IMG/VR virus record: IMGVR_UViG_3300032523_001141
Coordinates: 32,001 to 96,000 of that record
Direction: 5' to 3' (one strand)
DNA: 64,000 nucleotides
Source of the DNA: a virus
The first letter of the stretch is position 1, and each line of letters begins with the position of its first letter. The notes under the pieces were generated by a model. It saw only the letters and a list, made by a program, of their open reading frames with translations. It was not told the DNA's origin and did no database searches. Positions 16,972-57,762 of this stretch are shown here, in pieces. A program made the translations under genes and the position numbers.

Positions 16972-17817
16972 TTAAAATCCTCGCTTATCTAGCATTTCTT
17001 GAATCTTTGCTGCGCGCTGACTTACCGCGCCGGGAGTAATATTTAACTTTTGCGCAATCTCTTGCACGCTGGCGCGGCTGCGTCCATTGCGCCCAAGTGC
17101 CATGTCCATGATCAGTTTATTAGGCGGGCTTAAGTCGCCGTATACAAAATCGGCCCACGCGTCCTGCTCTTTATTCTGCCCGGGTATTTTGCTGGCAACT
17201 CCGCCGCTATCTGCGTAATCGTCTGCTGTCTCAATCACAGTCGAGCCCTCGGCGATCGGTTTGTGGAACTGCCGAATTTTCTTTATCCTCCGCACCGATA
17301 AGCCGATATCGTCTGCGATTTCGTCGTCGCTGGGGTCACGACTAAGCCGATCACGCAGCGAGTTTTCTGCCTCTGTTAACTTTTGAAAATCTAGGCCGAC
17401 TTGTTCTGGTATTCCTATAATGTTTTGTTCTTGCGCTGCTAGCCGGCGCAGACTTTGCATTTGCGATAACAAATGCGTTTTTACGTTTCCGCGAACCGGA
17501 TCAAATGTTTGCAGCGCTTTAAGCGCCATCAACCGCGCCCGGCTGCGCATTGCTGGTGACGGGTTAGCTCCGGCATAGCTAGACACAGCCGTATCCACAA
17601 TCGGTTGAATTTCAGCTAATATGTTTGTGTTTTGCTCAGGTGTTTGATTTTTAAACCAGTTAGCGTGCATGCTGCCAAAATCCACGCCAGCAGCAGGTGG
17701 CTTTTGCTCAGAGAACGGTTTGGGGATATCGCCTAGTATGGACGGCATTCCGGCGTTTTGCGGTGATTGAATATTCATTGTTGTTATTCCGGAATTGCTA
17801 ACGGGCCGTCGTGCCAT
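16972..17817 (-). CDS. Phage sigma-70-family factor with regions 2, 3 and 4 (true start may be a later Met)
   Basis: KALQTFDPVRGNVKTHL (region 2), LSRDPSDDEIADDIGLSVRRI (region 3 HTH), SVQEIAQKLNITPGAVSQRAAKI (region 4 HTH). Confidence 0.88.
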   Translation of the reverse strand: MARRPVSNSGITTMNIQSPQNAGMPSILGDIPKPFSEQKPPAAGVDFGSMHANWFKNQTPEQNTNILAEIQPIVDTAVSSYAGANPSPAMRSRARLMALKALQTFDPVRGNVKTHLLSQMQSLRRLAAQEQNIIGIPEQVGLDFQKLTEAENSLRDRLSRDPSDDEIADDIGLSVRRIKKIRQFHKPIAEGSTVIETADDYADSGGVASKIPGQNKEQDAWADFVYGDLSPPNKLIMDMALGRNGRSRASVQEIAQKLNITPGAVSQRAAKIQEMLDKRGF

Positions 17818-56300: not shown

Positions 56301-57762
56301 CCACGGTTGGGAGGTCGCTTTTATCCTCGCCCGGGAACACAAGCGGCATATCAGCAATGTCCTGCGGCGACTTGTACTCAAGCTCGCCTGTCTTCAGATT
56401 CTTCACTTTCATGTATATTTTGCCATCAGAGCCTTTTACAGCACCGCGGGCGAACCGCATGTCTACACCTACTTTTCCAGACTCCGGCGTGCGGAGATAA
56501 TCTACAAACCCGAAGTGACTCGGCTGCACGCTGCGCGATTCTTGCGGCACGGCGTCAAGCGAGCTAATGCCACCTTCGCCTAATCTGGTAACCCGCGTTT
56601 GATGGTCGTAAATTTCCGCCGGATTAATTTCTTCGAGACTAGACCCGAGACCGCTACCAATAAGCGCAGCCACAATCGCTTTATTAAACGCACCAGTCGG
56701 TACATGATCGAGTGTTTTCTTCGCCGTGGCTTTCCATAGCAGTTGCCGCAGCATGGCCCTATCTTTTGAGAAGCGTTCAGCAATTAAATCTTCAGGGCCA
56801 AGGACTTGTTGAAAAGCCATGCTGTCGCGGTCGTCTGATTCGGTCTCTTTCCGGTTTACGGCAATCAGCTTCTTCGTGATCTTGAGGATGGCGTCAGGCG
56901 TTAAATTTTTGATAGGCTCGCCAAGCGTGCGCTTTGTCACCTCGGGATCCATCTCCATTTTTAAAAACTCGTCGGCGATGGCTTTTTGTTTTCCTGGGGC
57001 GTCAATGCCGGGTATGGCTTTGTAGACAAGCCGGCTATACAGCTTGTCGAGCGTGCCGGCGTCGCCCTTTTCCATATTCACAGCGGTGAGCTCGTTGCCC
57101 CACGCCTTGCGAATATCTTGCTCTGAAGTGCCTAGCGCTTTAAGCAGCGGCATAAGCGGAATCTGCGCTTGGCCAATATTGATCTTGAATACGCCCGTTT
57201 TAGGGTCAAGATAATATCGGTGCATTCGGCCTTTTCCGGGAAGCACATTTACATGCGCTTCAAGTTCGCCGTTGTCTTTTTCGCGGGTGTATACGCCCGG
57301 GCGAAGTCGCATCTGATGGGCCAGCGTGTACTCCACGCCATTATGCACAAACGTACCAGCGTCGGTCATATACGGCACATTAGCCAACGTTGACCGCTTT
57401 TGCGCAATAACCGCGCCTGTTTTGTTGTCCGTTAGATTCCACGTACCGCGCAATTTTCGCGCGAGGGAGCCGTGAGAGAGCACAGCCTGCTTGTGATCTT
57501 TTTTCGTAAAACGCTCGGGGCCTTCGTAACCTACCTCGCCAAGGCTGAGCGTATACAGATCGTTCTGGACAGGTTTAATACCGCGGGCTTGAGTCGCCGC
57601 AGTATCAAAAATATCTTCTCGAGTAAAAACGGGCTCGAACGGCGCTACGCCAATTGCAGACTGCTGCGATTGCTGAAAGATATTTTGGCGTAACGCGTTA
57701 ACGTCGCCAAATTCTCGGGCTTGCGGCCCTAAGATCGAGTTTGACTGTTCGGGAAGTGGCAT
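53314..57762 (-). CDS. rpoBC: Phage RNA polymerase: beta fused to the catalytic N-terminal part of beta'
   Basis: beta: FVHNGVEY..QMRLRPGVY, HFGFVD..RTPESGKVG, GDKLTGRFGDKGVV, SRIN, RIGMLD; beta': PVIPPAFRP, GRAVITP, NRAPVLHR, GADFDGDAM. Confidence 0.95.
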   Translation of the reverse strand: MPLPEQSNSILGPQAREFGDVNALRQNIFQQSQQSAIGVAPFEPVFTREDIFDTAATQARGIKPVQNDLYTLSLGEVGYEGPERFTKKDHKQAVLSHGSLARKLRGTWNLTDNKTGAVIAQKRSTLANVPYMTDAGTFVHNGVEYTLAHQMRLRPGVYTREKDNGELEAHVNVLPGKGRMHRYYLDPKTGVFKINIGQAQIPLMPLLKALGTSEQDIRKAWGNELTAVNMEKGDAGTLDKLYSRLVYKAIPGIDAPGKQKAIADEFLKMEMDPEVTKRTLGEPIKNLTPDAILKITKKLIAVNRKETESDDRDSMAFQQVLGPEDLIAERFSKDRAMLRQLLWKATAKKTLDHVPTGAFNKAIVAALIGSGLGSSLEEINPAEIYDHQTRVTRLGEGGISSLDAVPQESRSVQPSHFGFVDYLRTPESGKVGVDMRFARGAVKGSDGKIYMKVKNLKTGELEYKSPQDIADMPLVFPGEDKSDLPTVAAIVNGKMKYIPRDQAQYMAPNMDASFSMLSNMVPLKSMMKGHRVIMGSRMFTQALPLVNAESPFIQSAIADDPSRSYEDDMGKSMGAAYADELSQVVSVTPDEIVLRNKDGEQKTVELYNDAPFNRKTFWTQTAAVKPGDTVKPGQLIAQSNFTDKNGTAALGLNMRVGYLPFRGLVYDDSVVISESAAKRLTSEHMYQHEADADDNTHIDKKKFVSLFPSEYDKKTLDNFDDNGVIKKGAVVTYGDPLILVSKARETTYGQVFRGKSANFTNDSVTWDHHSPGVVTDIAKTKKGYSAIVKSKAQMEVGDKLTGRFGDKGVVAGIIADDQMPQDAQGRPIEVLVSPLGLASRINPSQIVEAALGKVAEKTGQPFKIKDFDDQTDLIAFAKAELRKHQLTDLEDVTDPETGRKIKGVLTGNRFFMKLHHTSESKAQGRSTGGYTAEGTPAKGGPEGAKRIGMLDLGALLSHGAGQVIRDAKMVRGQANPEYWSQVMAGYTPPLPKIPQVYTKFVEQLRGAGITTVREGTKTHIMALTDKEIDKLTGDREIQNADTVDWKSGLRPKTGGLFDEGLTGGHNGNRWAKITLHEPMPNPVMEEPIRRTLGLTEKKFRDILAGQEKLNDETGPMAIKNALKRINVPKAIEQARQDIQSGRKVARDAAVRKLAFLKTSEKTGTHPEEWMLTKMPVIPPAFRPVSTMGQKKLPLVADANYLYKELLDANSVLKDSAGVFTEVGNERLGLYDAMKGVTGMGDPVQAKNVERRVRGFLSQIFGSSPKYGTVQRKLLSSTVDLVGRAVITPNPDLDMDQVALPEEKAWEIYKPFIVRGLVRRGLPRMEAIKSFDDKNNMARGELNQQMNSRPIIINRAPVLHRYGIMAFYPRLTKNKTMEVSPLVTNGFGADFDGDAMQFHVPSTDAAGREAAEKMLPSRNLFAASTFKGHYTPVAELQSGLYVASNRINKKSPARVFKSAKDAIAAYRRGDIEVDTPVHIVEND

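Follow-up and report, generated by a model that had tools for sequence, protein, structure and literature searches.

The 64,000-nucleotide stretch analysed here (referred to as the window) comprises bases 32001-96000 of the 119,990-bp viral contig IMGVR_UViG_3300032523_001141 from IMG/VR, which has a completeness rating of 59%, and carries every long gene on its minus strand. Three of these genes encode a two-chain RNA polymerase (RNAP) and a sigma-70-family factor, all of them devoid of cysteine (Cys):

16972..17817, minus strand: sigma-70-family factor; open reading frame (ORF) of 281 amino acids (aa), likely start at Met14 (position 17778), giving 268 aa; no Cys.
50466..52346, minus strand: beta'C RNAP subunit, 626 aa; Rpb1_5 domain; matches gp216 of Salmonella phage Arash with 25% identity; no Cys.
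53314..57762, minus strand: fused RNAP subunit, 1482 aa; full beta joined to the N-terminal portion of beta' (as far as the DFDGD loop); no Cys.

Based largely on analogy with particle data from distant relatives, it appears reasonably likely that RNAP and sigma factor are packaged into the virion and delivered as a sigma-containing enzyme. The window itself represents the structural half of a myophage genome of approximately 200 kb; the phage is uncultured and distantly related to Arash. In tblastn searches, Arash is the nearest cultured phage (32% identity across 97% of the 1482-aa protein), followed by the Vibrio phages D69, D181 and D148, and no phage record was matched by megablast. Close relatives are found in metagenomes, where they form a very large family; the best 120 homologues of the 1482-aa protein are 71-98% identical, many of them located on contigs of 195-213 kb. 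For comparison, two related records were used next to the window's own contig (G000): G002 and the complete relative G001, which comprises 203,206 bp with direct terminal repeats, is rated 100% complete and is collinear with the window's contig.

The identity of both RNAP chains is evident from their domain composition. In the 1482-aa protein, Pfam detects Rpb2_6 (E 9e-48) as well as Rpb2_2 and Rpb2_3 (above cut-offs), followed by Rpb1_1 and Rpb1_2 (E 5e-24), and Rpb1_5 is found in the 626-aa protein (E 2e-21). Across 36 aligned family members, the catalytic lysines K799 and K807 are invariant, and so are D1389, D1391 and D1393 of the ADFDGD loop at residues 1388-1393. The clamp helices of the fused subunit correspond to residues 1196-1233 and the flap stretch to residues 734-756, the flap-tip segment being shorter by about 7 residues when aligned to bacterial beta with HMMER. 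Ordinary bacterial beta (C. difficile, E 4e-71) and beta' (E 2e-48) are the best matches of known structure; judged by recognisable molecule names and entries, no phiKZ- or AR9-type enzyme occurs among the best 60 solved-structure matches listed. The N-terminal zinc ribbon of beta' has been deleted, being gone between GLFDE and KITLHEPMPNP, and with no Cys in either chain, both beta' zinc sites (four Cys each) are missing. Likewise, the alpha-subunit family PF01000 has no match in any of the three records, including the complete G001. Judged by sequence, the phage core is thus a derived bacterial-type RNAP made of two chains, without alpha and without zinc. Only one gene for a beta' catalytic domain is present in each of G001, the window's contig and G002. 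As there is no second polymerase, every phase not relying on host RNAP must be served by the same core. Alpha-like or omega-like roles were considered for the two small proteins encoded between the RNAP genes and dropped on reading their sequences, the 236-aa protein being a low-complexity chain rich in Ala, Pro and Met and the 80-aa protein not resembling omega by eye.

The 281-aa protein is a sigma-70-family factor. Gene callers place its start at Met14, and the resulting 268-aa form is likewise free of Cys. Pfam reports Sigma70_r3 with 37.8 bits (cut-off 25.3) and Sigma70_r4 with 21.5 bits, slightly under the cut-off of 24.1. The protein aligns to SigA from region 2.2 to 4.2 (E 5e-5 alone, 9.7e-8 as profile), with residues 94-140 covering regions 2.2-2.4 and regions 3 and 4 extending up to residue 272, and it is closest to bacterial SigA, RpoD and RpoS. 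An AlphaFold2 model is all-helical with a mean predicted local distance difference test score (pLDDT) of 70.9; using this model in a Foldseek search against the PDB, the top 50 listed matches are all sigma factors, with approximately 225-280 alignment columns and E values down to 9e-8. In Arash, the orthologous sigma is gp10 (29% identity). A single sigma locus is detectable in G001, the window's contig and G002 alike, and sigma and two-chain RNAP co-occur in all three related records searched as well as in Arash. The second sigma factor of Arash, gp196, has no homologue here, even at E 1. A sequence-only reading of the window made beforehand had proposed a bacterial-type core with recognisable clamp helices and a shortened flap, together with a phage-encoded sigma factor; Pfam, alignments and fold search agree with it in all of these points.

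As a separate observation, a motif ahead of region 2 (GMPSILGD.P.PFS, residues 8-25 of the 268-aa form) is strongly conserved in 30 sigma homologues; it is of low confidence in the structure model and has no counterpart in Arash gp10. SILG as an N-terminal signal common to sigma and fused subunit was dropped for lack of conservation in the RNAP alignment.

Whether the sigma factor fits the phage core was addressed by modelling a complex of sigma and residues 1030-1482 of the fused subunit. The model reached an interface score (ipSAE) of 0.61, the best control only 0.02; 58 of 80 solved complexes attained the ipSAE mark applied, as did 2 of 110 mismatched pairs. Agreement between runs amounts to 36% of contacts or more, with a partner pLDDT of no less than 62. 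In the modelled interface, residues 1193-1231 of the fused subunit (clamp helices) contact sigma residues 74-86 (region 2.2), 47-54 and 117-124. Hence, as had been anticipated from the conserved docking elements, sigma is predicted to dock on the phage's own clamp helices. Because sigma-beta' complexes have been solved many times over, the model speaks for a retained canonical sigma-beta' interface and leaves binding itself as a prediction. This result bears on an alternative in which the core would be packaged while sigma redirects host core RNAP to phage promoters, the phage core then using an unrecognised specificity factor. The specificity factors phiKZ gp68 and AR9 gp226 would be precedents for such an arrangement, and in the available parts of reviews, sigma factors of jumbo phages are described as acting with host RNAP (PMC7598289, PMC7824862, PMC13282480). 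The sigma's closeness to SigA, RpoD and RpoS suits this alternative, too, and a pass of the complex model can stem from mere likeness to solved holoenzymes; yet in the model, region 2.2 comes to lie precisely on the clamp helices of the phage, sigma and RNAP genes occur together in the three records searched and in Arash, and the sigma obeys the same Cys-free rule as the core. Taking further into account that sigma and RNAP subunits of Arash give near-equal spectra per residue (see below), a sigma working with host core is regarded as very unlikely.

The complete lack of Cys in the 1482-aa, 626-aa and 281-aa proteins, already pointed out in the sequence-only reading, was confirmed by translation and counting (0 Cys in 2389 aa together). 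The background frequency in the window is 1.196% (248 Cys in 20,744 aa of 53 minus-strand ORFs, 15 of which are without Cys). At this frequency, the probability of finding no Cys in 2389 aa is 3e-13, and it is still only 6e-9 at the 0.79% observed for Salmonella beta and beta' (7 and 15 Cys, 22 in total). Moreover, Cys absence is conserved. Among 120 close homologues of the fused subunit, 110 have no Cys and four have one; the remaining six, which extend to 1636-1827 aa, contain 5-15 Cys clustered within an insertion at about residues 370-770, one protein having an extra Cys at 1454. A more diverse set was obtained by searching 1.84 billion cluster representatives with HMMER and taking the 150 best matches (43-59% identity). 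Their aligned parts contain 296 Cys in 216,003 residues (0.137%), their inserts 1728 Cys in 89,928 residues (1.92%). Of the one-piece matches in this set, 18 of 23 are without Cys in the aligned part, and the others contain 1, 2, 2, 4 and 7. For beta'C, no Cys is found in the aligned part in 10 of 10 related loci holding this gene, and for sigma in 120 of 120 homologues (61-100% identity).

The fused RNAP gene is also an insertion hot spot. In 127 of the 150 representatives, which may lean towards long members, the sequence is broken by 1-5 inserts, with lengths up to 3350 aa, and one set of inserts was confirmed as intein splicing domains with LAGLIDADG/homing-endonuclease domains.

The absence of Cys is not limited to the polymerase chains and the sigma. 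Six contiguous genes (116, 335, 1482, 236, 80 and 626 aa; 50466-59095) form a Cys-free block of 2875 aa without a single Cys. Its four small members and the adjacent control gene are:

58745..59095, minus strand: 116-aa protein, first gene of the Cys-free block; no Cys; among 12 relatives, 6 without Cys and 6 with one.
57780..58787, minus strand: 335-aa Ala/Gly-rich protein directly upstream of the fused subunit; no Cys; present in the loci of 6 of 12 relatives, all 6 without Cys.
52580..53290, minus strand: 236-aa protein between the RNAP genes; low complexity, Ala/Pro/Met-rich (20 Met); no Cys; among 12 relatives, 8 without Cys and 4 with one.
52348..52590, minus strand: 80-aa protein between the RNAP genes; no Cys, as in 11 of 12 relatives.
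47982..50396, minus strand: 804-aa protein directly downstream of beta'C; 9 conserved Cys; Cys control.

The orthologous block of G001 likewise contains no Cys (counting the aligned part for beta'C), and small block members occasionally bear a single Cys in other relatives. In the same loci, aligned parts of the control neighbours retain their Cys, 8-10 in the 804-aa protein and 7-10 in a 341-aa protein, largely at common positions. Since these neighbours keep conserved Cys, the avoidance is confined to particular proteins, recurs in relatives and reflects neither a regional nor a base-composition effect. The zero-Cys observation is confirmed and is robust both statistically and evolutionarily.

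Precedent for such a pattern is provided by phage N4, whose injected RNAP gp50 was correctly cited in the sequence-only reading as Cys-free. Indeed, gp50, gp51 and gp52 contain no Cys in 3500, 644 and 150 residues, respectively, compared with 0.75-1.4% in N4 replication proteins. In the ejection operon of Schitoviridae, Cys suppression has been described as operon-wide and linked to passage through the periplasm (PMC11445570). Further indications, likewise indirect, come from particle proteomics of relatives; the statements that follow refer to the available parts of the respective papers. Liquid chromatography-mass spectrometry of Arash particles (Table 2 in PMC10585845) yielded 3516 spectra for the fused subunit gp206, the highest number of all proteins, 1210 spectra for gp216 and 467 spectra with 24 unique peptides and 100% coverage for the sigma factor gp10. 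Normalised to length, this amounts to 2.3, 2.0 and 2.0 spectra per residue for gp206, gp216 and gp10, compared with 1.5 for the portal and 4.3 for the capsid protein. As a rough estimate, the near-equal values are compatible with a holoenzyme. The other Arash sigma, gp196 (3 Cys), is unmentioned in the main text holding Table 2 (PMC10585845). In phage YerA41, RNAP subunits and sigma were found particle-associated by liquid chromatography-tandem mass spectrometry, with the sigma being encoded by a late gene of the structural module (PMC7354516).

A number of observations weigh against a packaged and delivered sigma-containing enzyme. Regarding the sigma factor, the Pfam model Sigma70_r2 does not recognise the 281-aa protein, the region 2.3 aromatics are replaced in its SigA alignment, and the docking result is subject to the likeness to solved holoenzymes already mentioned. 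Promoter searches gave no support either: exact k-mer enrichment in intergenic DNA of the contig returned nothing at k = 8-9, and a motif consisting of a T-run plus TAGCTAT, which emerged besides mainly tRNA arms from a one-mismatch search of G000 and G001, occurs in the window at chance level (7 matches vs 5.1 +/- 2.5 expected). The closest particle-tested relative, Arash, is distant, its fused subunit being 32% and its sigma 29% identical. The Cys rule is not general, either. In Arash and D69, beta'C retains 4 Cys and the fused subunit 1-2, and an SNF2 helicase homologue encoded elsewhere on the contig is free of Cys up to residue 797 and carries 5 in a C-terminal extension. The virion RNAP of phiKZ contains 16 Cys in 2614 aa, and its non-virion RNAP, with 18 Cys in 1887 aa (gp55 and gp123 left out), is little above the virion set; this control rules out Cys-freeness as a mark of every packaged RNAP.

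The packaged yet Cys-containing phiKZ enzyme is also in line with a different explanation of the locus, namely a non-virion RNAP made during infection for middle and late transcription, with the sigma acting as a late-gene sigma in a positive feedback. The proteins detected in particles of Arash and YerA41 would then represent carry-over, and Cys loss would result from loss of the zinc sites plus a pressure such as oxidative robustness. With regard to carry-over, 116 proteins were listed for the Arash preparation, among them ribonucleotide reductases, a deoxynucleoside monophosphate kinase and RNA ligases, and its authors themselves note that abundant infection proteins may merely persist in the preparation (PMC10585845). 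Yet the Arash fused subunit tops the spectral counts and per residue exceeds the portal, and the second Arash sigma is unreported in particles in the available text. The RNAP genes of YerA41 were classed as early and not late (PMC7354516), and a single RNAP must carry out late transcription in any case; a sigma that activates late genes would, however, be oddly placed within a late baseplate operon. Regarding the Cys content, loss of 8 zinc ligands leaves the other Cys losses unexplained, given the 22 Cys of Salmonella beta plus beta', and it accounts neither for the absence of Cys from sigma (120 of 120 homologues) nor for that from the four small neighbours. On balance, a purely intracellular role of the enzyme is considered rather unlikely.

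Returning to packaging and delivery of a sigma-containing enzyme, the following course of events is proposed. The two-chain core and sigma would be made together with the virion genes, and region 2 of sigma would engage the clamp helices of the phage-encoded beta', holoenzyme formation being predicted by the complex model. As suggested by the homologues in Arash and YerA41 particles, core and sigma would most likely be packaged in the virion, the head probably harbouring them as a holoenzyme. From there, we infer delivery of the packaged holoenzyme together with the DNA, enabling early transcription without host RNAP, and newly made copies of the same enzyme would also have to carry out later transcription. 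Cys avoidance over the six-gene block could then be an adaptation to extracellular storage and to unfolded passage without disulfide cross-links. The sequence-only reading of a virion-delivered holoenzyme is partly supported: the protein identities and the Cys avoidance hold, and homologues occur in Arash particles. It is weakened by phiKZ, whose packaged RNAP is not Cys-free. Its suggestion that RNAP and sigma may travel in different virion compartments is unsupported, and a location of sigma in the baseplate rather than the head was not adopted, gene position having been the sole basis for both.

The genomic surroundings of the RNAP and sigma genes contain the following features:

14338..16008, minus strand: baseplate wedge subunit, 556 aa; phrog_6 (E 2e-10); matches Arash gp13.
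21016..24678, minus strand: 1220-aa protein with 56 Met and no Cys, upstream of the baseplate genes.
26095-28932: weak VgrG-like (DUF2345) match in Pfam/PHROGs.
29654-32557, 33489-34724 and 35383-36390: virion-protein homologues, matching Arash gp236, gp234 and gp233.
37229..38158, minus strand: major capsid protein homologue, 309 aa; 28% identity over 306 aa to Arash gp226.
40569-42179: virion-protein homologue, matching Arash gp222.

RNAP and sigma genes are part of a one-strand structural module, as had been proposed. Searching PHROGs and Pfam with 20 neighbouring proteins, only the baseplate wedge, one family of unknown function and the weak DUF2345 match were found. The position of the sigma gene between baseplate genes was correctly recognised, as it is flanked by the phrog_6 wedge gene and the VgrG-like match. 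With the Met14 start, sigma begins 5 nucleotides past the end of the preceding gene, and its own stop codon is directly followed by the next one; because of this tight spacing, the sigma gene is part of the structural operon. The order sigma, two small genes, wedge gene is common to the window and Arash (gp10, gp11, gp12, gp13). The proposed location of the RNAP genes among head-protein genes holds in part. The major capsid homologue, which is 92% identical in G001, lies 12 kb downstream of the RNAP genes, and homologues of the virion proteins gp218 and gp222 are nearby, the former being the 804-aa protein with a weak match to the N-terminus of gp218 (E 0.002; an ESM Atlas look-up gave no usable match). 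The portal homologue of the complete relative G001, on the other hand, is located about 76 kb from the RNAP genes.

For the 1220-aa protein, no family match was obtained in PHROGs or Pfam. Its G001 ortholog has 1486 aa and is also free of Cys, and by position, the protein may be a tape-measure or ejected protein. Arash gp4 (1097 aa, no Cys) is similarly long and Cys-free and is encoded upstream of the Arash sigma gene; it has the second-highest spectral count in particles according to the available text, and no sequence match to the 1220-aa protein. A hydropathy scan of the 335-, 116-, 236- and 1220-aa Cys-free proteins gave no transmembrane segment at the threshold applied. The SNF2-type helicase mentioned above (1011 aa, G000 112994-116029, minus strand) lies outside the window and is homologous to Arash gp217, which is Cys-free, reported as abundant in particles and encoded adjacent to the beta'C gene in Arash.

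Opposite to the Cys-free internal set, the distal tail proteins are rich in Cys, as had been stated for outer virion neighbours, with 6.8% in a 355-aa, 3.9% in a 542-aa, 3.8% in a 320-aa and 2.1% in a 1791-aa protein. Distal tail/fibre ORFs at 2-14332 (minus strand) range from 1.1 to 6.8% Cys, save one 208-aa ORF with a single Cys. This suggests disulfide-stabilised outer parts.

Further observations concern the regulatory DNA. TAGCTAT often follows a T-run after a GC-rich hairpin, for example at window positions 34764-34773 (minus strand), and is mostly intergenic (about 11 of 18 exact copies in G000 and G001, as read from their contexts). It may represent a terminator-promoter junction or a phage promoter element. 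Generic scans for sigma-70-type promoters revealed no enrichment (15 vs 16.0 +/- 4.4 and 10 vs 19.7 +/- 4.4), and the same is true for terminator-like sites. The lower of these values was obtained in a single generic scan of window positions 8001-28000, with 10 promoter-like sites vs 19.7 +/- 4.4 in shuffled sequence; such scarcity of sigma-70-type sites would fit host-promoter avoidance.

Extending the interpretation from the window to its relatives, the widespread uncultured clade of approximately 200-kb phages and Arash-like phages might inject a complete sigma-dependent holoenzyme. This would be the first virion-delivered sigma and a third transcription strategy, with the Cys-free block as the ejected set; in this generalised form, the proposal is tentative, its chances being put at somewhat less than even. 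What the clade does hold is a bacterial-like core and a sigma-70-family factor, a single copy of each, both with the Cys mark of the N4 polymerase. If the proposal is true, the injected core is two-chain, alpha-less, zinc-less and cysteine-less, and comes pre-loaded with a sigma-70-family factor. This third strategy would stand beside the use of own, sigma-less RNAPs and that of an own sigma with host RNAP, and it would explain how abundant environmental phages escape dependence on host transcription. Cys absence would become a sequence-only predictor of ejected proteins in such myophages. Moreover, a minimal self-assembling bacterial-type RNAP without alpha, zinc and Cys would be attractive for structural and in vitro work. 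As the cultured relative Arash grows on a laboratory strain of Salmonella, the idea is directly testable.

In current reviews, large phages are divided between the two known strategies. According to the available parts of reviews, RNAP-encoding jumbo phages are without sigma homologues, and sigma-encoding jumbo phages are without RNAPs and use the host core (PMC7598289, PMC7824862, PMC13282480). In open-access papers and preprints, no analysis was found of a sigma-dependent virion RNAP, of a phage beta-beta'N fusion or of Cys avoidance in a multisubunit phage RNAP, and only the proteomic observations on Arash and YerA41 surfaced. The available text of the Arash paper contains no analysis of RNAP architecture, Cys content or mechanism, nor the word rifampicin (PMC10585845).

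Among known systems, Arash shows the same two-chain design, with a beta-beta'N fusion (gp206; 32% identity at 97% coverage), a separate beta'C (gp216) and the sigma gp10 (OQ632216), as well as a common gene order for the stretch between RNAP and capsid genes. Its fused subunit is Cys-depleted like that of the window (1 Cys in 1525 aa; 2 in 1527 aa for D69). The differences include the low identity of only 25-32%, the 4 Cys in beta'C of Arash and D69 compared to none in the window's clade, and the additional sigma gp196 of Arash. Furthermore, the portal and helicase genes of Arash adjoin its RNAP genes, whereas the homologues of portal (in G001) and helicase (on the window's contig) are far away. 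Similarity to YerA41 is lower, since only the beta part matches the window's enzyme (24% identity) and the YerA41 sigma gives no tblastn match to the window's sigma at E 1e-3. The N4 gp50 operon resembles the six-gene block in that Cys is absent from the injected polymerase as well as from the ejection proteins encoded next to it. However, gp50 is a single-subunit, T7-like polymerase of a podovirus with an unrelated fold that needs no sigma, in contrast to the beta/beta' type encoded in the window. The virion RNAPs of phiKZ and AR9 are, like the window's enzyme, multisubunit polymerases of beta/beta' type without alpha, which are described in the available parts of the literature as packaged in the head, injected and driving rifampicin-resistant early transcription (PMC7598289, PMC13282480). 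These enzymes consist of 4-5 very divergent chains, are accompanied by a second, non-virion set, have no sigma-70 homologue and are not Cys-free, whereas the window's enzyme is near to bacterial RNAP, fused, present as a single set and combined with a sigma-70-family partner.

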